A stretch of 64,000 bases of DNA from NCBI GenBank assembly GCA_964016885.1, contig OZ024743.1:162068001-162132000 (forward strand), read 5' to 3'. The translations under genes were made by a program, and so were the position numbers. Shown piece after piece: positions 49-54,990 of the stretch. The DNA is from Eledone cirrhosa. Lineage: Eukaryota. Position 1 is the stretch's first letter. The number at the start of each line of letters is the position of its first letter. The notes under the pieces were generated by a model. It saw only the letters and a list, made by a program, of their open reading frames with translations, did no database searches and was not told the DNA's origin.

Positions 49-50
49 CT
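1..50. repeat. (ATCT)n microsatellite, apparent target of the adjacent Tx1 LINE
   Basis: Direct reading; ATCTATCT resumes at 5804 just after the LINE 3' end. Confidence 0.95.
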
Positions 51-226
51 CATCTCTATAGACGTGTGCCAGTTCGCTGGTAAGTTTTTATTGATTTTCT
101 GCGTAAGAAATCAAAGATTTATTGTTAAATTTGATACTATTTTATATCTTGACCCCACGTCTGGACCTTTAGACGGTGGGTCAACTCGTCTTCACCTCTC
201 CCTGGGGTGAAATTTTCATTTGAAAA

Positions 227-2137
227 ATGTTTTCGGTGAAAAATTGTAAACAAATGTTGCATTCAGTCATGGACGCCGCGTCCAGTACTAGAAGTGGTGG
301 AGAGGCGGTAAGAGTGTTAAGCTCGCAGTCATCTCCTCTCACCACCTCATTGAAAGACGTTAAAAATGTCGTCCGTTTTGAAAACACGTTGTCGAACATT
401 AATTGTAACACCAACACCAACACGAACACCAATAACATGAAAAATGTGAACAACACCAACCAGAACAACAACAACAATAGCAACAATGATAACAACACCA
501 CCAACAACAACAGCAACACGAACAACTCCACAAACAAAGAAAAGATTTCCTTTGCACAAACCGTCCAAAAGACGGAACTGTTTACATATCTTGACATCTC
601 CAATGCTAGGGAGTTGTTAAAAGAAGCAAAACAATATGTAATTTTTGGTGAGAGTGGTGCTTTCAGCATCACTTCTCCTCAACAGTTACGTAGAGAAACT
701 ATCCTAAAAACAATAATTTTTAGGACAGTTTCAAATGTGTCTAAAAAACCAGTCCATTTATCCCAAAACGAAATTGAACTGGTTCTGAAAAATTCAATGA
801 AGGATATTGCCTTCATCCAAAAAGGTAAACTTTTTGGAAGCATTTCGGTGCTGATGAAAGACCAATTGACGGCACAAAAATATTCTGTGTCGCCAATTGT
901 GCCCCCCCCCCTTTACACCTTTTCCCCCACATATATGGGAAAAAGAACCTCAAAAATTAAAATTTCAAACATTACACCAAACCTAAACGTCTGGTGGATT
1001 TTGACTGGCCTCATCGATTTCGATGAAGACACAACAATTTCAGTGGGAAAGTCCTCCAGAGGCACATTCAATGGTACAACCTGGAAGTTTTGGTCCAAAT
1101 AAGGCCCGAATGGATAGCTAAAATACCCCAACTTGTGCCTCTGGATGGGATTTCATACATAAACATTTCTGTTGAGGGTAGGCGGCCTTCATGTTACCAC
1201 TGTTTAAGCAGTGGTCACCTGAAGGCTTACTGTCTTCAGCTAGCTGCAAAAAGGAGGCACTACTGCCAACACCCAAAACAACAACACAACCACCACCACT
1301 ACCACAACAACAACAACAACATGCAAACATAACCAAAGCAAGAACAACAAACCAAACTGCAAGCACAGTCCCACCCAACCCCACTACACCTAAAACCACT
1401 GCAAAAACACCCACAAATACAACAGCTCCCCAAAACATACTCCTTCCAAATAACACAGACACCACAACGGACGAGGCCCCCTCATCATCACCAAGTGACG
1501 ATGAGGGAGAGCCTCTCCGTTCGAAAAGAAAAGACACCACAAGAACAAAAAAGAAACAAACATCACTACAAACATACAACCACCAACACAAACAACACAA
1601 ACATTACAAACAAAACCCTCCCGTCCCGAAAACAAAACCACGACATCACACCAAACACAAACACCTGCAACAAAACGAAAGCTCACACAAGAACAACAGA
1701 CAAAAACCAACACAATACAACAAGAACATTACACATACATAAACAGTGGAAACAAAACTTTAATGGAGGTCATCTCCTACGACCCTCCGGTGAAAACCGA
1801 AGGGAAAACGTTTTCGAACTGTGCAGACAGACCTTATTTAAAGATCATTAGGGTCCCTACGGACACCTATAAGTCTTTAAAGGAAAACTTTCCTAAGGAC
1901 GTGGCTAATCCTTGTGTTAAACCCATTAACCGCGTGCTTTTAAAATGTTTCCCCACCCTCACCCCAGACACCCCCTCCCCACCAAACATCTCCGTCCTCA
2001 CCCCGCCGGAAACCACCACCCAGCAACCCCTCCAACACCCCCATGGAAATCATGCAGCCTGGTCCTCAGGAGACGAAGAGGTGAGTGATTTCTTTTCCTC
2101 TTCTTTTAAATTTTCAGCACCAACATGGCCAATATAA
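227..2137 (+). pseudogene. Tx1 ORF1 (gag-like nucleic-acid-binding protein), broken into ORF pieces 227-1102, 1090-1332, 1191-1742 and 1763-2137
   Basis: Zinc knuckle CYHCLSSGHLKAYC; Asn/Thr/Pro low-complexity tracts; homologous to minus-strand pieces at 23202-24574 (CFVCGETAHL). Confidence 0.8.
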
Positions 2138-5100
2138 GAGTTGGATGTGTGAATGTACGCAGCCTGGGGATGCCCTGGAAAAAGGGCAAATTCTTAAACG
2201 ACCTCAGGTCGCACAGTATGGATGTAGTAGCCATTTGCGAGTCCAAGATCCACAGCGATCGACAGCTGGCCCCCATCTTTGACGACTTTGAGATCTAGGC
2301 ATCTCTCTGTCAGCCGGGAGGTGGGGGCGGGGTTGCCGTTTTGCTGCGGAAACACCTGGCCCTCGTAACACAGACAGTACATCTGGACCCGGAGGGTCGA
2401 CTGGTGGTCCTAGACGTTGACGGTAGTGAAGGTGGAGCCTTCAGGCTGGTGGCCGCATATGCCCCATCCAGGACACCGCGGCCAGACTTCTTCAAACGTC
2501 TAGAGACTTTTCTGGGAACATCCCGCTCCTTGCTTTTAGTGGGGGACTGGAATGGAATCCTAGATGCACGTTGGAACTATGTGGGAGCATGTCCCGATAA
2601 AGGGGAGTGGGGGGCGGGGTGTAACAGCCTCAAACAGTTAATCGGCCGATTTGACCTGGCCGATAGATATCGACTAGATTTTCCGAATGTGTCCCTTTGG
2701 AAGTGGACTAATCGCAGCGGAACATCTAGATCGTACCTAGATAGGGTTCTAGTTAGAAATAAGGTTAGGGACATGTTAAGCTGTCCACAAATGTTCATGG
2801 TTGCCTATTCAGATCACAAACTAGTGACCTGCATGGTCAACTTTAATAGAACCCATAGACAAGGATCCGACTACTGGAAGCTGAACTTGTCGTTACCGAC
2901 ATGCAAAGCCTACAGTTGACGGATTAGCACTTTAGTTAAACAGCACTTGACAGGAGCTATTGTAAACAACAGATGGTGGTACTTTCTCAAGAGGGCAGTT
3001 AGATTAGACTCGTAGGTTTTTAGTAAAGAATTAGCGTTAGATAGAAATAGGGCCGAGAAGGAACTGGTAGATAAAGTAGAAGAGGCAATTAGAAGTGGCA
3101 ACGTAGCCAGCGTGCTAGCAACGAGAACGGCCTTGGACCAGTTCTTCGACGCAAAGCACGAGAGCTGCGCTGTCAGAAGCAAAATACGTGCTCTGAGTAA
3201 CGAGGGAGCCAAAGCTGTTAGCTGGGCCCGGGTGACGGAGACAAAAAGTGGCAACAAGTCCACAATTCGGTCTTTGAGGACCAAGACGGACACGTGATAC
3301 GTGAGCCGAAGCAGATGTGCGCAGCCTTTCAGCGGCACTTTACTCAGCTGTTCGGGCAGGGCGGCGCGCCGGGAAGGGCTATGGATTTCGGTCCATACCT
3401 CGACGGCCTACCGCGACTCTCGGACAGCGAGGCGAAGTTCTGCGAAAAGCCGATTTCGGCCGCTGAGATAGGGGACGCGCTGAGCCAATGCGGCAAACGC
3501 AAATCTCCAGGTCTCGACGGTCTACCCTACGAATTTTATGTAGCAATGCCGGACATGTTCTCCGGTCTCCTGGAAGCGGTCTACTGCAACTGACAGCAGA
3601 ACGAGAGAATTCCCAGGTCTGTTACCAAGGGCGTAGTCACGTTGGTCAGGAAGGACGAGTATAAGGGGGATGACATAAGAAACTTCCGGCCCATAACTCT
3701 GCTAAACACAGAGTTATAGATTTTGGCCAAGGTGTTGGCATAGAGGCTGGCGCTTGTCGTCGAAAACCTGGTGGGAGAAGCGCAGACATGCGCAATCCCG
3801 ACCAGGTCCATACACGACAACCTCCACCTCATGCGATATATCATACAGAGGGTAGGGTGTAAACCCGGCTTCGGTGGCGCCCTGATCAACTTGGATCAGT
3901 CTAAGGCTTTCGATAGGGTTGACCATCGTTACCTGGATGCGGTGCTCGAGGCGGTAGGCTTCGGACCCGTGTTCAGGGGCTGGATTGCTGCAATGCACAA
4001 TAGCAACATCTGCTCAAGGGTCAAGGTGAACGGCTACCTCTCGGAGCTGTTCCATATCACGCGATCCATCCGACAGGGATGCCCTCTCTCCTCCCTTCTG
4101 GACGTACTGACTCTCGAGCCGCTACTGCGGAAGCTGGGGCTATTGCAGGCCATCCCTCTAGAACCGGGACTGCGGAAAGCGGCGTCGGCCTACGCCGACG
4201 ACGTGACAGTAATGGTGTCGAGCACCTCGCAAATCGGGGAGGTCGGCACCTTACTGGAGGAATACGAAAGGTTCACAGGAGCGAAGCTGAACCGGGACAA
4301 ATCCGTCGGTTTACAACTCGGGACGTGGAGAGGCAAACCGATGACTTCCGATGGCGTCGTCAGACGCTGGACGGAAGGAGAAGTAAAGTTGCTCGGGGTC
4401 TGGTTTTGTCCGGACCTCCAGGTGGAGAAGAACTGGAATTAGGTGACGGCCAAGGTGTTTGCACTCACCCAGAAGTGGGCCGAGTGTAAACTATCCTTGA
4501 AAGGTCGAGCGGAGGTGGCGAACACTTTTATAGCGTCCGTCATCTACTACCGCTTGACCATCGTGCCTTGACCAGCCAAACGCTCACCAAAATTGAGCGC
4601 GCGCTCTTCCAATTCCTTTGGAAGAAACGGGCTCCTTTGGTGAGAAGATCCATCTGCTGCCAACACCCTTCAAACGGAGGGATGGGGCTGCCGTGGCTGA
4701 CGATGCGCAAACACGCGCTCAGGTAGCGGCACCTCCACGTATTCCTCACCGGACAACCGGTGTGGGCCCCGTTCGTGAGGCGAGCCTTTCCACCACTCGT
4801 CTCGCTGATCGAGCTGCAGTCCTGGGTCAAGCAAAGACCGAGGAAAATGGGCGACTGGCACATCGAATGTGCTCAGGCGCTCACAGTTCTCTGGCAAACG
4901 GACCCGGCGATCAGTGAGACTCCACTTCGACATTATATAGATGGTTGGTCCGCAGCAAGTGCGACGACGCGCTCGGAGAAACACTAGGCGTAGAGGAGGA
5001 CGAACTGACGAGTCTGTTCGGTAGGACCTTCCGCCCGAGACCAATGGACAACTTCCAAAAGTCCCTGGCCTGGCAGTGCTACCGAGGAACTCTACCAGTT

Positions 5101-5574
5101 TGAGACAAGCTCTACAGACACAGGCGCCCGGGCAGGGACCCTTCGAAAAAGATCTGTCCGAGATGCGTGCGCGACGAGGAAACCATCGCGCACGCATTTG
5201 TACACTGCCCGGGCGTTACCGATCTGTGAGGCTATGTAGAACGACTACTGTCGCGGGTGGGACCAATCCAGTTGACCACCGAGTCCATTGTCATTATCAA
5301 ACCGCCACCCTCCTTCAAAAACGAGGGAGAGGCGGTTTTCCTATGTGTTATGGCTATGGTGAAAGAGGTTATATGGTGGACGAGGTTAAAAGGGCTGAGG
5401 TCAGACACCTTTCTCTCCGGCGAGCAACTGATTCGTCTTTTCAAATATCATTTTGGAAGAAGAATCAGGATGGAGAGAGAGGTGCCGTACCCCAGAAAAT
5501 TTTATAAAATGGGTGAATATGGCAAAGATGGCCCGAGTGGTTGGGCCTTCTCTCTATATAAGCCTGTAGGTTGA
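2125..5574 (+). pseudogene. Tx1 ORF2 (APE endonuclease, reverse transcriptase, C-terminal Cys domain), disrupted
   Basis: MANIRVGCVNVR start; GDWN, YLDRV and SDHK (APE); KSPGLDGL, LDQSKAFDRV, RQGCPLS and YADD (RT). Confidence 0.92.
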
Positions 5575-6699
5575 GGAAAAAGAGGAAGAGAGGAAGGGAG
5601 TACTCACTCTTGGTTCTCCTGGAGATGAGGGTTGTACATTTTTTCGGGGTGTGTACAACCCCTGTGTAACGCCTCCCCCCTATTGGGGATTTCAATTGTT
5701 ATTTGTTATTTTATTAATAGTTTTATTTTCATATACCTGTATGTAAACTCCCCATTTGTATTTGTCCCCTTCTTTTGTGCTCTGGTGGCTAATAAAGAAA
5801 TTTATCTATCTCAACAGGAAAAAAAAAAAAAAAAATGAAGACTTGCAGCCGAAGAAACGTTCCAGTAGTCCAGTGATATTTCGACATATTCAATGAGGTC
5901 GTTTATTGCAGGGAATGGTAGTGTGACACAGTCGACAGATAGAATGGTTTATGGTATTTAATTACGTTTCTCCTTACTGTATATACCGCATAAGATGTAT
6001 AAAATAAGTACACCAGCCATATGCTGAAATCGATTCAATCTACTGCTACTCCAAAAATAGAATTAGAATTTTTAGACTTGTGTCAATGTGAGAAAACAAT
6101 ATCTATAAAGTATCTGCAACGGCAACATAAAACAAGAGGTAAAGTTCCGGAAAACCACTTTTACGACGTGTTATCTTTTTCACGTATGTAAAATAATTGT
6201 TTCTACTTTTGGCACACGAATAATGCCCTGAAAAATGTATAGCCGTGACATTTACTATATTACTCTTTCACTAAGAAAAGAAAATGAAAGAAAATGGAAG
6301 GTACCCTGTCTAATAAAAACTAATTTTTATTATTCCACAACTTTTGAGAATGACGTTTCTTCGTGTTTATTCAATAATCAAAAAGAAATATAACAAAATA
6401 TCATCTGCTTTCAAGGATAATAATGTCACTGACGTGATGTCATGTGTATTCAAAAGTTTCTGAATACATGTTTGGCACTGTAATGAATCAGCAATATTTA
6501 TTAGAATTTCAGAGGCCAATAAAATATTGCGAATAACTTATTTTTAAGTGATAGAGACATCTGAGATATAAATGAACGGGAAAGTTATTGATCAAAACTT
6601 TATGATGAAAATCACACCAAGAAGATTTGTGGCTGACGAATCAATTATGGCTAACGATTTATAAATTTACAATTATTGCCGATGATATAAAATAGTGTT

Positions 6700-11301: not shown

Positions 11302-11907
11302 GGTGGCTGCCAACTCGTTTTCGAGTACGGCCACTACTTTATATCCATGTAGGAGAACCCCTACCGATGCGCTGAAGGAGTGTGACTTTTTAGTCCAGCC
11401 AGCGACTTGAAAACTCTGGTACAAACACTACATTTGTGACAATTATTGACACATAGTGCTGGGCCCATGGTACCATGTGACGACAAGTGCAGAGAGATCT
11501 TCAGATATAAAGCAATGCCTGTGCCGTGAAGCTTTTATAGTGAGCAAAGGTACTGCACAAAGCCAGTCCCACTCTCTTAACCAAGATGATATTTACCAAA
11601 AAGAAGAACAAGTCAACATCATTGGATACCATCAGGGTTGCAGGTGTTATATCAGAGTTTTCCTTCTCCTAGAATTCTGCCTTGACAAAGGCTAAGGGGT
11701 TATCTCTCCCGGTGATTTTGGATGGCCATTGACTCTTAAGAGCTCCTTTTCCCTTTGACAGGTTTTGTTTTTAGTCCTGCAGGATGTCCAAAGTCACCCT
11801 CCTCACCAAGAAACCTTGGTGGGGTTGCCAGTTTAATCGCCAACGACCCGACCATGGGGCAGGTTGTACTGGGATACATGTTACTAGTAGCACCAACTGG
11901 TGACCTG
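11302..11907 (-). mobile_element. ~600-bp non-autonomous retroposon, copy 2, inside a (TACA)n tract
   Basis: Reverse complement of 8225-8828; flanked by catacatacatgcatacat on both sides. Confidence 0.7.
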
Positions 11908-11997
11908 CATACATACATGCATACATACATACATACATACATACATACATACATACATACACACATACATACATACATACATACATACATACATACA

Positions 11998-13380
11998 TGA
12001 GAGTGTCAGATATGATGGACCCATAAATAAGGAGAGAACCAGAACTGAATACCTCAGAAGAGTAAAGAAAATATGGTCATCAGAACTGTCAGCATACAAC
12101 AAATACATTGCCCACAATACTTATGCTGTGCCAATTCTAACGCCAACATTTGGCCTACTGAACTGGTCATTGCAAGAACTAAGTGAGATGGATGTTAGAA
12201 CTCGAAAACTTCTCAGTGTTACTGGGAACTTTAACATCAATGGTGATGTGGATAGGCTATACTTCTCACGCAAGGAAGGTGGCCGGGGTTTAAAATCAAT
12301 ATTAACAACATATGAGACCCGGATAGTGACACTGAAGCAACACCTTCAACAGAGGAAAAAGGTTGGCAACCATCTTGCCCAGGTTTATGACCATGAAAAA
12401 AGAAATATCATTAGAATAGCGACTGATCTGGAGGAGAGATATGGAATAAAGCCTGATATAAATCTCTCACCCAGAGAAATCGGAAGATCCTATTCAATGT
12501 TCAAACAAGTTAAAAAAATTGACCAATTTACAGAAAAGGTTGTGCATGGATACTTGAGACGTAAAACACAGACCATAGAGGGAATAAACCACTCAAAAAG
12601 CCTGGCATGGAGTTCCGACGAGTTTATGACATCACACCTTGAGGGATATCTCTATGCAATACAGGAACAAGAACTCCCTACCAAATATCTGCTGCACGAA
12701 AGAGGAGGGTCAGCAGCTGACAATAAATGTAGGCTATGTAAACCAAAGATCGAGGATGTAAGCCACATTGTTGCCAGCTGCGAAAGAATGTCATCTCGCT
12801 ACTACCTCCCCATGAGACACGGTGGGATAGCTAGAACCATCTGGAACGCACTTCGGAAAACAAAATTAACAACAAACGAGGAAGAATATATTGAGACAGA
12901 TGGCACTAAGGAATACTGGTGGAACCTGAAAATAAAAACTGCCACCAAATTAAAGCACAACCGGCCTGATATTGTAGTTTGGGACCACACATTGAAAACG
13001 TGTTATGTTGTGGAGATCAGCTGCCCACTTGATGTAAACGTTGTCAGAAAAATACAGGAGAAGGAGGACATCTACGGACCATTGATGAGGAGTTTACAAA
13101 TCCAGTATCCAAGATACACCTTTAGCTTCATACCCATCATTATTGGTGCTACGGGTTATATACCAACCCGCTTGGACCAAAGTATGACTGAACTTGGATT
13201 TGTGGACAAAAAGCGCAGCTCCCTAATTCATAGTCTACAAATGGCTGCGATAGCTGGCACCTTCAAAATTTGCAAAACATTCTTGCGATTCAAGGGATGA
13301 CAATTTCTTTTCTTTTACAACCTTGCCACCAGGAAGGTGGCCGGTCAAAAAAATATACTCGAAATTAAGAGAAAGAGAAA
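11998..13380 (+). mobile_element. R4-like (REL endonuclease) LINE, 5'-truncated; open ~430-aa C-terminal ORF
   Basis: DVDRLYFSRKEGGRGL, CRLC..HIVASC zinc knuckle, NRPD..VEISCP..EKEDIY REL motif; flanked by (TACA)n. Confidence 0.88.
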
Positions 13381-13419
13381 ACATACATGCATACATACAT
13401 ACACACACACATACATACG

Positions 13420-14410
13420 AACCTCGAAGCGTAGGAGCCCATCTATCAAGCAAGTCCATCTGCATGAGACAGATAAGATCATGAGTGTTGGGAAGGAACT
13501 CCTTGAAAGATATTCTTTGCGTAATAATCAAAAACTCACACCCAGGGAAGTTAACCAACAATACAGCAGTGAATTCATGGATGAAAAACCGCATGCTTAT
13601 CAGCAAAAAATCATGCATGGATATGTTGCCAGGAAGTTCCAGAGTGAGAGTAATATAGATAAACAAAGTAGTCTATCTTGGACCAACAACCGCTATATTG
13701 GCTCCCACTTTGAAGGATGTGCTTTTGCAATCCAAGAACATGAAATCAACACAAAATACCTGATTCACAAAAGAGATAGGGATGCAGGCAAAACACCTAG
13801 ATTTGATAACAAGTGCAGACTCTACAGAATTAACATCGAAGATGTCACCCATGTCATCAGCAGCTGCCCAAAGATGTCATCGCGGTACTATCTACCTATG
13901 AGGCCTGATGTAGTGGCCAAAACACTGTACAATGAAATCCGTAGAAAAGATAGCTCCGATAATAAACACATTAAAAGCTACAACAATGTGGAAGACATAC
14001 ACATACATAATATGAAAGAGTACTGGTGGAATGTTCCAGTAAAAACCCCAATAAAATGCAGGAATAACAGACTAGATATTATGATATGGGACAGGGAGAA
14101 GAAAACATGCACAGTAGTGGAAGTTAGCTGCCAATCAGATGCCAATATAATATCAAAGATCAGCGAAAAGGAGAATATCTATGCAGAACTAATGAGAAAT
14201 CTGCAGATACTCCACCCTGACTATACCTTCACATTTATGCCTGTAATTATTGGGGCACTGGGATATGTTAGTTACTGCCTCAATACAAATCACGAGAAGC
14301 TAGGCTTCACAGAAACAGAAAAAAACGACTAGTTAGGCAATTACAAGTACAATCCATTCATGGAACAGTAAAAATATGTAAAACATTCCAACAATTCTGC
14401 ACCTAATAAC
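13420..14410 (+). mobile_element. Second R4-like LINE 3' fragment, diverged from the first
   Basis: AIQEHEINTKYL, CRLY..HVISSC, NRLD..VEVSC..EKENIY; flanked by TACA-type repeats. Confidence 0.85.
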
Positions 14411-21679: not shown

Positions 21680-24590
21680 GATTAAACTTCCTGGTTACAT
21701 GCCAGATCCTTCCTTTCCGAGTGAAACTTGAAAAAGTCGATGAGGGATTCGCCGAAGAGTATAATGTCTGTCATCAGTTCTTTCAACAAGGTCCACCACA
21801 CAATCTCTTTCGCAACTACCACCAGACAGAGGAAAATTGCCTGCTCTTCCTGGCCAAAAAGAAGACGTTTTACACGCGACAACAGCTGTTCGACATAACT
21901 CCACAAGTCAGTAATGCACGAGTGCGTGCAGAACGGTTTCATCACTCTGCAGGTCCGTCTGTCAGCACTTCCGTGCCTGTAGAGTTTATCTCGAACCGGC
22001 AATGCCTCCCGGTAGCACTGCCAAGCGAGGGAAGTTATCCATCGTCTCCGGCTCGAAATTCCTCCAGAATAGACTGGTCAGTTCGATTTCGTCGACGCCC
22101 AGAGCTTCTCCGAGTGCATCGTCGCACTTGGCCATCAATAATCCTCTATAGAACTCGAGAGTGGAAGTTACGTTGCCCGCCTGGTAGAGGGCAGTGAGCG
22201 CTTGGCAACATTCCAGATACCAAGCGCCCAGTCTCGGTTTCTGTTTGACCTAGGACTGCAGCTCAATCACAGAGATGAGCTATGGAAAGGCCTGTTTCAC
22301 AAACGGCAACCACATCTGTCATCGTTTAGGCAAAACATCTGGAGATACCGCAGTCTCAGTGCATGTTTGCGCATCATTAGTCACGGCGGCATTCCCAGTC
22401 CTCCCCGTAGAGGGTGCTGGCAGCAGATGGACTGTCTCAACAACGGAATTTGTCCCCTCCACAAAAAGTTGAAGAGGACCCGTTTCAATTCGGCAAGGCG
22501 CGGACGGGATCAAGGCACGACGGTCAGGTGATAGTAGATGACGGATGCGATGTACGCGTTCACCAACTCCGCCTGACATTTCAGAGACAGCTTCTCTTAG
22601 CCCATTTCTGGGTAATAGTGGCTACCCTGCTCGTAACCTCGTCCCAATTCTTATCCCCCTGGAGGTCTGATCTGAACCAAACCCTGAGCAACTTTACCGG
22701 TCCGTCCGTCCAGCGCCCCACTTGCCTTTCCAGGTGACAAACTGCAAGCCCACCGACTTTTCCGAGTTTGGTTTTGCCCCCGTCAACCTTTCATATTCCT
22801 TACCTCGATTTTCGAGGTGTCCGACATCATCAGGGTGATGTCGTCCGCATATGCCTACACAGCTTTTCCGTGTCCCGGTTCGAGCGGGATGCCCTGAAAC
22901 AGCTCCAGCTTCCGCAGTAAAGGCCTGAAGTTTTCTAACGTATCCCTCTTGTTCTCGTCTTTCTTCATCAGCATCACTACGCTTCAAGTCACAGATCTGG
23001 GATTACTGCCGTTCTGCTGCGAGTTGCAGTAGAGCACTTCGAGGAAATCGGAGAACTAGTCTGGCATATCTACGCAAAGCTCGTAAGGTAGACCATCCAA
23101 ACCGGGTGATTTGGGTCGTTGAGCAGGTGACCCTGCTTCCAAGACGATCCTCGGCCACGAACATTTATACATCCTACTCTTAAGATTGCCATATTGGCAG
23201 GCTAAGGGAGAGAGAGAGAGTGGGAAAGGTTTACTAACCTCCCGGGGGCTTGTGGAGGTCGGGTTGTTTGACCTACATGGTTGGTGGGTCTTTCTTTGGG
23301 AACCCTTTCAACAATCTTGAAGTGGGTTTCATATTCGGGGGTCCCCACGTCCCAAGGAAAGCTCTCTCTAATCCCTTTGTAGGAGTTGAGCGACATTCGT
23401 ACCAGCACTAAATTTCTGGCACGCGAAATGTGCTCTCTCCCTCTTTTTCTATTTCATACCTTCGTGTTATCAGGGCCATCGAATTCTTGTTGGACCTTCT
23501 TACTAGCACCAAGTTGTGTGTCTTGTTTTGTTCTTGTGTTTGTTGCGGTTGTTTGCGTTTGGGGGGTTGTGATGGTGGTGGTCGTCATTTTAGTGTTGGT
23601 GTTCTTGTGGAAGTGTTTGTTGTGTGTGTGGTGTCTGCATTTTCTATTGTGGGTATGTGTGTAATGTGTGGAGTTTCTTTTGTGCCTTCTTTTTTGCTTT
23701 TTGGCTTTAGGTTTTGCCTCGTCTTTTACTACTGGAAGATGAGTTGTCTGTGTCTATGTGTGTGTTTGTGTTTGTGTCAATGTGTATATTTTGGGGGGAG
23801 GGGAATGGAAGAGTTTTCCCCCTGGGTGGCCAAAGTTGGTGGTGACATTTTTGCTGGTGTTGCTGGCGGTGGTGTTGCCGGTGCTGGTTTTGGTGGTGGT
23901 CCCCACCCCAGCGTCGGCAGCAGTTGAGGCTTACGACCCCTTGCATTTTTCAGTTGAGGGTAGAAGGCTCACAAATGCGCTGTTTCGCCGCAGACGAAAC
24001 AGTGCGGCCTTTTGCCCTCGATCATTACGTGCAGAACCGTCCCGTTTTGGAGACGGATATGGTTCGGGATTTTGCTCAGGTCTTCATGCCTGATCTGGAG
24101 AAGTATCCCTAGATCAACCCCGGACCAGTTCTCTCTGGTTGTTCTCGTCACCTAGATCGGGACGGCATATTTCTCCTCCACAATCACGCAACCCAGGAGC
24201 CACCACATGTCTAGTCATGGGGGATTCCCGGGAATACGGACCGTTACTGTTCTTTTTCCAATGTGGGAGGGGTACATAATGACCTTGCTGGTTTTGTAAG
24301 GGGTCACTGCGTATTTTACGGTGAAGGCTTCAGACTTAAACAACACCGAGATGGTGCCATATTGTTTGCCCATCGCTAGGTACTCGGTGTCATCTCTGAT
24401 GCACCTCAGCGCAGCTTCAATTTCGGCCGGTGGAATGATTGCCGATTTTTTCTTCTGCACTGAAATCCATCTAAAGTGCACCGTTCCCCTCCCCACCGCT
24501 TCTATGACTTCAACCGGGACAACTTTGAAATACGTATGGACACTTGGGAAAAAAATGCTTTCCGTCGCCATCAAGGAAGAAAATGGATAA
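21680..24590 (-). mobile_element. Second Tx1/L1 LINE, diverged and internally deleted
   Basis: ORF1 pieces (IEGKRPHCFVCGETAHL); ORF2 start near 23192; KSPGLDGLPYE, YADD and LPVRDKLYRHG remnants. Confidence 0.85.
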
Positions 24591-25751
24591 AGCGAGCAGC
24601 GGGAAAACTCATAATTTGTGATTTTTATGCCTAACCTGATTAGTCACCAAAGGATCCATAAGGCTATACAAAAAGTTGACTACAGCAAATTCATACAGTT
24701 CATGTGGGGAGTTTTACAAATTTATTGGTGGATTAAAAAGACAGTGTTATACATCAAAATACACTTTTGTATACTGATGTGCACATATGCTGCTTTTTTT
24801 TTGTAATGTCTGTCATATGGCATATAGGAGATTCACGAGCTTAAAGAGCCACTGTCAAAAATAAGATTCTCTCCAATCACTCTACTGAGCCAACAAAATT
24901 ATTTATATATTTATTGAAGATTTTGTGTTTTCAATCAATTTACAAGATGAAAGTCCACCGAAATAATGTTTGGTACAGCATAAGTAAATTACCTTGTTAT
25001 TAAAAACTGAACGAGGAAATCTCATTAGAAGTTAGTTGTACAGAAAATATTGATGATATAATCATTACTGGAATGTCATTGCAGCTTTAAATAAGAGGTC
25101 ATTACATCCATAACTACCAACTTGCTTCTCGAATGGAGATTTTTAGTGATGATGGCATATCCAAATATAGATGTGACTTGTTTCAATATACGCAATGTAA
25201 AACTTTGTAATCTTCAGGAAAAAGGATTCGTTATCATTCACGTACAGATATACACACATGTACATCACCCTCTCTCTCCCTCTCTCTCTCTCTATCATAT
25301 ATATTCATAAACTTTCAGATACAGTAGCACACAGATACACATAGATTCTGAAGAAGCTCACTGAATATCACTGTTTTATTACACACATTTACAGTCATTT
25401 ACATACGCATACACACATCGACACATCATGTAAAAAGATATACACTTAATGTATATGTTTATATATCATGGTCTGTCAAGATGTATGTATATATGCTTAC
25501 ACATGGTAAATGAATTATTGGTTTAATACCATAGATTTCATGTTGTTCCATATAGTTGAGTCCTAATGAGATGAAAGATAGCCGCAGGGTACATTCATTG
25601 TTACTGCAAGCCTTCGTACGATGTCTTAACGTTTCATGAATAAAAAAATAACAGAACACAAAACCATATATGCTCATTAGATATTTATGTCGTTATTACT
25701 CACAGCTATCAATAATGACCAATATTATCTCCTTTTACTCTCTCTCTCTTC

Positions 25752-30835: not shown

Positions 30836-30860
30836 AATATTAATAATAATAATGATAATG

Positions 30861-32011
30861 CTTTCTTTATTAACCATAAGAGTTTACACAAAGTGAGACA
30901 TTAAGGACAGTACAGGACAATACAGGACGGTACAAATGGGCATTTCTGTGTGTAAAAAAACAAAAACAGAGGATGTAACAAAAAAGAGTTATAGAGTTTA
31001 TCCCGAACTGGCAAAGCTCCTCCGTAGCACTGCCAGGCCAGGGATTTCTGGAAATTGTCCATAGGCCTCGGCCCGAAAGTTCTTCCGAAGAGATTGGCTA
31101 GTTGATTTTTGTCGACGCCTAGCGTTTCCCCAAGTACGTCGTCGCTCTTCCTCTCCACTAATCCCCAATAGAACGCCAAGGTGGAGTTTCCACCGATCAT
31201 ATTGCCCGACTGGTCGAGGCTAGTGAGCGCCTGCTTTCTTTATTAACCACAAGGGTTGACATAAAGTATAACATTAAGGACAGCACAGGACAATACAGGA
31301 CGGTACAAATGGGCATTTCTGCGTGTAAAAGACAAAAAACAAACAAACAGAGGATGTAACAAAAAAAGAAACAATGAAAAATTCCCAAATAGGGGGGACA
31401 ATTCCGAGGGTCATTCGTGGAGAAAGCCCATTAAAAAGCCACGGTAACCCTCACCACCAGGGCAAATACCCTCTCCCAGTTTTCTACCTTCAACAATTTA
31501 GAGTCGCATACTCAGAGTATGCTTGCGTCTCGGGCCATGCTTGCGTCTCTCACCCATCTGGGAAGAGAGCACTTCCCTCTCTACCCTGATTTTCCTTTTC
31601 AAATGAAATTTGAAAAAATTAATCAGGGCATCACCGAAGAAGTAAGTGTTCGTCTTCAGCCCTTTCAAACTCATCCACCACACTATCTCTTTCGCCATGG
31701 CCATCAGACAGATAAACACTGCCTGCTCTTCCCGGCTAAAGGAAGAGGACGGGCAATCCTCACGATGGACTCAACTGATATACGGATCTGTCCTACACGC
31801 AACATCAGGTGTTCGACATAAACCCACAAGTCAGCAATGCTCGGACACTGGACGAGTGCGTGCAGGACGCTTTCGTCGCCCTGCGCGCATCTCGGATATG
31901 CCCGGCTGACAGCACTTCCATGCCTGTAGAGTTTATCCTGAACTGGTAAAGCTCTTCGGTAGCACTGCCAGGCCATGGAATTCTGGAAGTTGTGCATAAG
32001 CCCCGGCCCGA
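30861..32011 (-). mobile_element. Two tandem Tx1 3' fragments (30861-31226 and 31233-32011) within (TAA)n
   Basis: FGPRPMDNFQKSLAWQCY..LPVRDKLY; both end ggttaataaagaaagc; bounded by TAA repeats. Confidence 0.82.
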
Positions 32012-32012
32012 A

Positions 32013-32067
<55 letters not shown>

Positions 32068-53711: not shown

Positions 53712-54990
53712 CTCAAAAGGGTATGTATTACTAATAAGTGTTTTTATGGAGGTACCTGGTCTTTCTACTATCTTAATATTAAGTTTAAGTTTATCTAGGG
53801 CCCTTCTAAATTTGTAAGCTAATTCACCTCTAGGGGTTGTATTGATGAACATTACACTCTGGTATTTATTGCTATCATACCATGAGTTTATTCAATTAAC
53901 CTTATTCCTAGTTCTTTCTAGTCTATTCCAAAATTTGCTCCTATACAAGAGGCAGGTCCCATTTGTATCATTATTTACCGTTTTTTCCCATTTGGTTCTG
54001 GCTCCTCTATATACTCTGATTTTATCTCTCTGATTGTAACCAGAATTGAATTAGCTTATAAATTTAGAAAGGCCCTAGATAAACTTAAACTTAATATTAA
54101 GATAGTAGAAAGACCAGGTATCTCCATAAAAACACTTATTAGTAATACATACCCTTTTCAAAGACCTCCCTGTATAGATAAGAAATGCATAATCTGTAAA
54201 CTAAGCCTCCATATTAACTGTAAAACTAGAAATGTAGTATATAGCATAAGATGTACTGAAGGACAATGTAAAGATAAAAATATAGTGTACATAGGTGAGA
54301 CAGCTCTTAGTATAGGAGAACGGTTAAATGAACACTGGCGAGAGCTACAAGATAAAAGAGAATCATCAATACTCCACCAAGATGCTAAAATAGAACATAA
54401 GGGCAAATTAGAGAACATAGAAATAAAAATAGAATCTACACACAGAAAAGACGCAATGTTTAGACAAATCACAGAGGCAGTAAACATAAATGAACTCCAG
54501 CCAAAATTAAATAGAAAACATGAATGGAATAGCAACATCACAACTTACAATTAAGGACAAAATGAAAACACACACACACATAGAACAAACAACCAACCAG
54601 TAGCATGTAAATAAACAATTAAATAAACAAATAAAAACACACACAAATACCCGGATGTAACACATGCGCAAACTAAGCACACAACACACACAAAAACAAG
54701 ATGGCGTAGGACAGAACAAAGGAGAGGCACAAAACAAAGAAAAGAATCCCCAGTCACTGAAGAGGTCACAGAACGTGTGACGAAAGAACTTTGACAATAT
54801 ATGAACAACCGTCCGGTTGTGGAACCAACCAACCAGCCGGAAAATTATAAATTTATAAATTTAATTTATAATAAATTGGAGTGAAAGCAACTGGTGCGTG
54901 TGTTTCTTATTGGCAACATGACCCTCCCAAAGTATAACAATATCGGTTTCAACACACGTTTTCAGATAAAGAATCTTGCTAAACAAATTC
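53712..54990. mobile_element. PLE with inverted 5' part (minus 53712-54045; plus 54053-54990 including GIY-YIG and an unedited pLTR)
   Basis: Overlapping inverted arms; ORF 54285-54554; reference pLTR 54553-54990. Confidence 0.85.
54753..54795 (+). ncRNA. Type I hammerhead ribozyme, intact, ~200 nt after the PLE stop codon
   Basis: gtca-CTGAAGA-ggtcac..gtgac-GAAA-gaac-TT-tgac. Confidence 0.82.

Follow-up and report, generated by a model that had tools for sequence, protein, structure and literature searches.

LINEs copy through RNA, and a splice within such an element therefore usually either disappears or kills the new copy. The locus described here raises the question why two diverged LINEs in the window (the whole stretch of 64,000 nucleotides that was analysed) should both feature a 37-nt GT..AG module directly before the ATG of ORF2, a coincidence pointed out in an earlier note on this DNA, whose coordinates, preceding GAG and module length proved to be exact in both copies. 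The features concerned are the following.

50..5802, plus strand: copy 1, a decayed, apparently full-length Tx1-type LINE flanked by 10-nt direct repeats (40-49 and 5803-5812)
227..2137, plus strand: ORF1 of copy 1, interrupted by frameshifts near 1080-1100 and within its low-complexity middle part
2078..2086, plus strand: junction donor-like site of copy 1, GAG/GTGAGT, the best by U1 pairing among the 298 GT sites of copy 1
2081..2117, plus strand: 37-nt GT..AG cassette of copy 1 (GTGAGT...TTTCAG), with the best acceptor in copy 1
2125..5569, plus strand: ORF2 of copy 1 (EN, RT and C-terminal part), interrupted by stops and frameshifts
21690..24650 (ends approximate), minus strand: copy 2, a decayed Tx1-type LINE with an internal deletion
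23190..23192, minus strand: ORF2 ATG of copy 2, 9 nt past the AG, sharing its frame with the ORF1 stop
23238-23202, minus strand: 37-nt GT..AG cassette of copy 2 (GTTAGT...CCTTAG), with the best acceptor in copy 2
23233..23241, minus strand: junction donor-like site of copy 2, GAG/GTTAGT with a non-consensus T at +3, third among the 150 GT sites of copy 2

The two elements and their splice-like cassette

Judged by their sequence, both copies are LINEs of the L1-Tx1 type with a separate upstream ORF1, the APE endonuclease followed by an RT being identified in copy 1. They share with other L1-Tx1 non-LTR elements the two ORFs, both enzymatic domains, an ORF1 stop beside the ORF2 start and an insertion adjoining a simple repeat, copy 1 being inserted where an (ATCT)n run ends. 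ORF2 of copy 1 matches PF03372 (EN, E 8e-10, 2299-2916) and PF00078 (RT, E 4.5e-19, 3744-4439). Its ORF1, for which 227, 254 and 269 are candidate start codons, gave no Pfam match; it is homologous to the intact ORF1s of the related loci L006 and L019 (E to 1.6e-8), and we take its parts to be an RRM-like part, a CCHC knuckle, which was read directly from the sequence, and a C-terminal domain. Identity between the copies amounts to 57% in ORF2, 52% in the EN-type N-terminus of ORF2 opened by both ATGs and 31% in the RRM-like part of ORF1, and the ATG context CCAAYATGGC is common to both. Rfam yielded 0 matches within the window, the plasmid collection no match and the ESM Atlas nothing at 0.9 or above.

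The window contains further mobile elements. A third Tx1 family (30852-32013, minus strand) is represented by its 3' part alone, with two tandem 3' ends, and its 3'UTR features an extended T-rich tract, the closing CAG of which lies some 80 nt upstream of AATAAA. The second of its 3' fragments (30852-31227) jumps from ORF2 to the 3'UTR and was rejected as a spliced copy, since the breakpoint is not at GT/AG. A 969-aa open RT frame (PF00078; 33474-36383, plus strand) belongs to another non-LTR element, 22% like Tx1, which we presume to be perhaps of the R4/Dong type. Besides, the plus strand carries a zf-RVT frame as a mobile-element remnant (11891-14332), a mariner-type transposase remnant (PF01359; 47053-47841) and a GIY-YIG frame, likely of a Penelope-like element (53922-54554).

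In copy 1, the cassette is preceded by GAG (2078-2080) and comprises a TnA with its A at -30 (2088), 17 pyrimidines in 20 positions (2095-2114) and a closing CAG (2115-2117), with the ORF2 ATG (2125) beginning 7 nt after. Likewise, the cassette of copy 2 is preceded by GAG, has a TnA with its A at -30 and 19 pyrimidines in 20 positions, and ends with TAG (23204-23202), 9 nt before the ATG at 23192; this TAG doubles as the stop of the ORF1 C-terminal frame, which the earlier note did not mention. The TnA is a weak heptamer match to a branch-like A in both copies. Donors were scored by their pairing energy with a U1 5' end taken from locus L043, and both junction donors match U1 at 7 of 9 positions, with -11.6 kcal/mol in copy 1 and -8.4 kcal/mol in copy 2. 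In carrying a strong donor as well as a strong acceptor signal where the two ORFs meet, the window elements differ from the L1-Tx1 elements described in the literature searched. A conserved junction hairpin was rejected, as copy 2 folds otherwise than copy 1, for which a purine/pyrimidine stem can be proposed, and no fold over the junction is significant (z 0.0 to -1.4). The same applies to a conserved peptide, since the two ORF1 tails have no residues in common; any constraint on the module thus acts at the nucleotide level.

By U1 pairing, the donor of copy 1 ranks in the top 0.07% and that of copy 2 in the top 1.1% of the window's 7364 GT sites, and the acceptors are equalled or bettered by 24 (copy 1) and 3 (copy 2) of its 6849 AG sites. 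Dinucleotide shuffles of the 130 nt round each junction, with the pyrimidines preserved, gave rise to the module in only 0.1-0.4% of trials (6/5000 for copy 1, 19/5000 for copy 2); the whole window contains 4 loose matches to it, where 100 shuffles average 1.16 (P=0.03). The earlier claim that the signals are kept while the inner sequence differs is borne out by identity at 10/11 signal positions compared with 18/59 other nearby positions (Fisher p=0.0003), with thresholds and positions picked after the motif had been seen; measured against the four-fold sites of ORF2 (75/140 identical), the binomial p is only 0.011. As the copies are homologous, this represents one origin kept twice and not two origins. 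The loose definition also matches coding or antisense DNA, i.e., position 2253 of L037, two sense sites in L045, one to four antisense sites in each of six distant loci and two other sites in the window. Overall, the splice-like signals are real and above chance, on the evidence of two sequences.

The likeness to splice sites might still be incidental, if the module were an ordinary Tx1 junction made of stop codons and a pyrimidine-rich spacer aiding re-initiation, or were held by some other non-splicing constraint. Besides the modest binomial p, this explanation gains from the fact that GTGAGT, GTTAGT and GTAAGT each contain a stop codon, TAG even closing ORF1 of copy 2; furthermore, T-rich inter-ORF regions are reported for fish L1 (PMC5381506), and one human L1 donor is described as being kept through its overlap with a RUNX3 site (PMC5860796). 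The rarity of the module in the shuffles and the unremarkable folding speak against it, as does the position of the stops inside the donor hexamers, which lie outside the ORF1 domain frame in both copies and in a different register. We regard this explanation as doubtful, albeit a serious one.

Reading frames and probable re-initiation at the junction

In copy 1, the ORF1 C-terminal frame (last open from 1505 to 2137) traverses the module and ends 13 nt inside ORF2, its TAA (2135-2137) overlapping the ORF2 start, and in copy 2 it ends at the TAG 9 nt before the ORF2 ATG. Such proximity is widespread: among the 15 lineages in which both ends are readable, 12 have their ORF1 stop between -14 and +29 nt relative to the ORF2 start; the spacing is 14 nt in the related L001-type elements, and stop and start overlap as TAATG in the L037 family. 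Going by the sequences, this is the layout expected for termination-reinitiation, a mechanism described for ORF2 in human L1 and SART1 (PMC5972666). The earlier proposal that these elements rely on splicing to express ORF2 is not supported, given the stops at -13 and +9 nt and the existence of intact sister families without an acceptor before ORF2.

Excising the 37 nt in silico joins the frames in neither copy, and the distance to the ATG differs (7 and 9 nt). An in-frame ORF1-ORF2 fusion was accordingly rejected, in agreement with the earlier note, which had stated that excision does not fuse the ORFs and had on this ground considered a micro-intron the less likely reading. After excision, the ORF1 stop of copy 1 shifts to 158 nt beyond the ORF2 start, by which the coupling of the two ORFs would be broken, whereas the stop of copy 2 falls only 13 nt beyond the ORF2 start; the effect is thus not common to both copies. 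A true micro-intron without fusion, excised from part of the transcripts and either aiding export or translation or uncoupling ORF2 from ORF1, would explain the complete anatomy, the equal length in both copies and the narrow range of 33-40 nt in relatives, and introns so short do occur in some animals (PMC13644364). Nevertheless, the length falls short of the roughly 50-90 bp that the same source gives as typical of the shortest animal introns, and an excised intron should be lost by retrotransposition, while 46/46 related copies retain theirs with 0 exact losses. A micro-intron consequently appears very improbable.

Junctions, cassettes and leaders of relatives

A scan of a genome collection yielded 53 loci of eukaryote-like Tx1 DNA within MAG records. 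The bacterial records CAXXMW, CBDAUV, JBEVXV and CBDHHR contain long eukaryote-like repeat contigs, which are probably host contamination. L001-L039 (CAXXMW contigs) harbour head-to-tail tandem arrays that consist of intact Tx1 elements from several subfamilies, with a unit of about 6.4-6.9 kb, in which the 3'UTR is common to the subfamilies and leaders and ORF1 N-termini are swapped; no Rfam target gene was found between the array units in the four loci scanned. Distant Tx1 elements (L043, L044, L046, L049, L052, L053 and L041) are located in or adjoining U1, U2 and 5S gene arrays, which is consistent with Tx1 targeting. For Octopus vulgaris, a listing of L1-Tx1 families runs to 80. In a FastTree tree of 28 rows, containing no named Tx1 reference element, the window copies form one clade with P0001 and P0002, and the L001-type and L037 families are its sister, with support of 1.00 at both nodes, to be taken as rough because the alignment was query-anchored. 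The sister families are intact, and their ORF2 is 38-44% identical to that of the window copies. A protein search with EN retrieved eight proteins, the only named source being Argonauta hians, so that an octopod origin of the window is probable. One of the eight, P0004, belongs to the sister clade and is a fused prediction of great length, in which the junction is not readable at the protein level. Fused or extended ORF1-ORF2 proteins of the window clade appeared in none of three protein searches. Two matches to the ORF1 C-terminal query were discarded as low-complexity and unrelated, and alignment searches with the ORF1 RRM and the ORF2 N-terminus found no proteins.

For the comparison of junctions, L042 (5' truncated) and L052 (same family as L051) were excluded, four L001-type loci were included, and the start codon of L049 is uncertain; the window clade contributes two readable junctions, those of copies 1 and 2. 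A donor at the ORF1 end is present in 2/2 window copies and in 56/56 distinct L001-type ORF1 ends, where TAA is followed by G/GTAAGT (8/9 U1 matches), 7 nt and the ATG. It is absent from L037 (5/9 U1 matches), and among 12 distant Tx1 lineages a 7-of-9 donor near the ORF2 start was seen in one. A pyrimidine tract with a usable AG before ORF2 occurs in 2/2 window-clade junctions, in 0/2 sister families, the L001-type having neither tract nor AG there, and in 0/12 distant lineages. In six of these 12, at least 18 of the 25 nt preceding the ORF2 start are pyrimidines, again with no usable AG, as would be expected of an ordinary Tx1 junction. It follows that the acceptor is peculiar to the window clade, the tract common in Tx1 and the donor shared with one of the two sister families. 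The invariance of the donor within the L001-type is weak evidence, since the family is homogeneous (only 4/16 four-fold sites near the junction vary, and seven fixed bases arise by chance with a probability of about 0.13) and diverged copies would have been missed by the family anchors used for finding them. In the distant L044 (2275-2318), a donor-like CAG/GTATAT stands 38 nt before the ORF2 ATG, followed by a tract without AG.

A second cassette of the same anatomy as the window module was found after ORF2 in the sister families.

L001:3096-3129: post-ORF2 cassette
L006:9483-9519: post-ORF2 cassette
L037:5539-5573: post-ORF2 cassette, a 35-nt version

In the L001-type, this cassette of donor, tract and YAG measures 33-40 nt and is located 14 nt past the ORF2 stop in 46/46 copies, the donor being GTAAGT in 26 and GTGAGT in 20 of them, with variable inner length. 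An exchange of GTAAGT and GTGAGT is tolerated by 5' splice sites, and this alternation argues against an ordinary junction held by non-splicing constraints. Deeper in the 3'UTR, 12/12 representative sister-family copies carry an additional pyrimidine tract with TAG, so that distant acceptors for an ORF1-only splice are available. The 3'UTR of copy 1 has no strong acceptor (none among the top 8 of copy 1). T-rich 3'UTRs are described as usual in L1 (PMC5381506). Precisely spliced genomic copies were searched for with five junction patterns in 39 overlapping loci and none was found; a shortened copy in L008 was rejected, as its breakpoint is not at GT/AG.

The leader of copy 1 carries two features of its own.

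77..85, plus strand: leader donor-like site CTG/GTAAGT (GT at 80) followed by a T-rich run, 8/9 U1 matches, top 0.6% by pairing energy
149..184, plus strand: leader hairpin of the TGACCCC...GGGTCA type, with a similar one in the leaders of L001-type relatives

Between 60 and 200 (plus strand), this leader folds far more strongly than its shuffles (z=-4.0), and a UUCG hairpin takes up the donor in its 3' arm. The donor-like sites in the leaders of relatives are weaker (6-7 of 9 U1 matches). In 4/12 of these leaders (after L007:5211, L011:3740, L015:5202 and L031:5211), an inverted repeat that lies further downstream and is exact over 12 nt covers the site, possibly a way of hiding it from U1.

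The leader bears on the view preferred in the earlier note, by which the acceptor is used with an upstream donor. In its full form, the leader donor at 80 would be spliced to 2117/2118, ORF1 would be removed, the resulting ORF2-only mRNA would be the main source of ORF2 protein and the unspliced RNA would be copied. As 40-79 contains no ATG, such a splice would indeed give an mRNA with the ORF2 AUG first. The strong leader donor of copy 1 fits this scheme, as does the fact that in both elements the best acceptor lies 7-9 nt ahead of the ATG and has a TnA at -30; moreover, a spliced ORF2-only RNA of human L1, SpORF2, is reported to give functional ORF2p (PMC2896524). However, the scheme leaves the junction donor unexplained and stands against the stop-start spacing for re-initiation retained in both copies, and the acceptor on which it depends is found in neither sister family nor any of the 12 distant lineages. 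In addition, no leader-to-ORF2 spliced copies were found in the relatives searched, the AG of copy 2 is the ORF1 stop, and the limits of the copy 2 leader are undefined, with only a 7-of-9 donor-like site near 24635. L1 proteins, furthermore, favour their own mRNA, and spliced L1 copies are described as dead ends (PMC5860796). The availability of an upstream donor thus stands for copy 1, but as an account of how ORF2 is mainly made the scheme is unlikely.

Possible roles of the cassette and its counterparts

Our preferred reading, with a probability of roughly 0.4, is that the cassette is selected and that its core is the donor closing ORF1, with a role like that of the Copia gag donor, ORF2 still being produced mainly by re-initiation. 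From the sequence, ranks, spacing, lineage distribution and copy retention given above, we infer U1 binding, some splicing and the RNA isoforms as follows. A U1 site closing ORF1 would be the core common to the lineages. In some transcripts, by analogy, this donor may be joined to a distant downstream acceptor, which would give an ORF1-only message, while on unspliced transcripts the bound U1 may protect the full-length RNA. The unspliced bicistronic RNA would stay the template, with ORF2 translated mainly via termination-reinitiation, and the acceptor before ORF2 would be an addition of the window clade, which may yield a minor ORF2-only message from the leader donor. Donor and acceptor stand so near each other that an animal intron of this size would be unusual, and the two sites are probably not joinable to each other, because excision would lose the cassette, relatives always retain it and 33-40 nt is under the usual minimum. 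The pair would therefore not be removed as a unit, and the cassette could survive copying through RNA.

Several observations weigh against the preferred reading. The ORF1-end donor is missing from L037 and rare in the distant lineages, copy 1 offers no strong acceptor in its 3'UTR, and not a single precisely spliced genomic copy was recovered. Moreover, with 0 AATAAA or ATTAAA in ORF2 of three elements, U1 would find hardly any poly(A) signal to suppress. A further effect, independent of splicing, that is reported for intact 5' splice sites in human cells is nuclear retention (PMC11629677).

A more far-reaching variant would treat ORF1 and ORF2 as mutually exclusive exons, in which the sites 33-40 nt apart cannot be joined, ORF1-only and ORF2-only mRNAs arise via distant partners and the unspliced RNA is copied by trans-supplied proteins. 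A cellular precedent is alpha-tropomyosin, whose exons are sterically exclusive as donor and branch point are too close for joining. If this were true, the element would be a LINE whose splicing programme resembles that of retroviruses and whose cis-preference is relaxed; we deem it distinctly unlikely.

Among mobile elements, the Ogre elements of the Ty3/gypsy group feature an intron between coding regions, the splicing of which joins the frames. The window elements resemble them in placing splice signals between two coding regions, but excision joins no frames in the window copies. The closest counterpart to the preferred reading is the plant Ty1/Copia element EVD, in which a conserved donor at the gag end is reported to give a gag-only RNA and U1 binding to protect the full-length RNA (PMC5580714). 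Both systems would have in common a conserved donor closing the structural ORF, and in EVD the unspliced RNA is the genome, with U1 both defining the short message and protecting the long one. However, EVD belongs to the LTR elements, has a single gag-pol frame and contains an intron of some 300 nt demonstrated by RNA-seq, whereas the window elements are LINEs with a 37-nt cassette seen in the DNA sequence. In human L1, the SpORF2 and SpIRE transcripts are comparable in that a 5'UTR donor is joined to a downstream acceptor, which removes ORF1 and leaves ORF2 (PMC2896524, PMC5860796). These splice sites are nevertheless presented as side products and the spliced copies as dead ends (PMC5860796), and the window elements differ in that their acceptor immediately precedes the ORF2 ATG and has a partner donor 37 nt upstream. 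Elsewhere, introns are reported for the antisense RNA of TART, and L1, Tad, Penelope and Athena are also mentioned in this respect (PMC1636488).

The full-text literature searched contained no account of a comparable cassette in Tx1, a weak absence given that subscription journals, Repbase, repeat libraries and preprint supplements are little covered; the string 'splic' is missing from the main texts of PMC5381506, PMC7140322 and PMC13282606. What appears to be new here is thus a Tx1 LINE with conserved splice-signal cassettes at its ORF borders. Splice signals of this kind are surprising for a LINE, and they are directly testable with existing RNA data, as exact junction coordinates can be named for the available cephalopod data sets and the intact relatives suit reporter work. 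The means by which LINEs produce much more protein from ORF1 than from ORF2 are understood only in part. The top-ranked splice signals at the ORF borders offer a test of whether LINEs may control the ratio of ORF1 to ORF2 by U1 and alternative splicing, as some LTR elements do.
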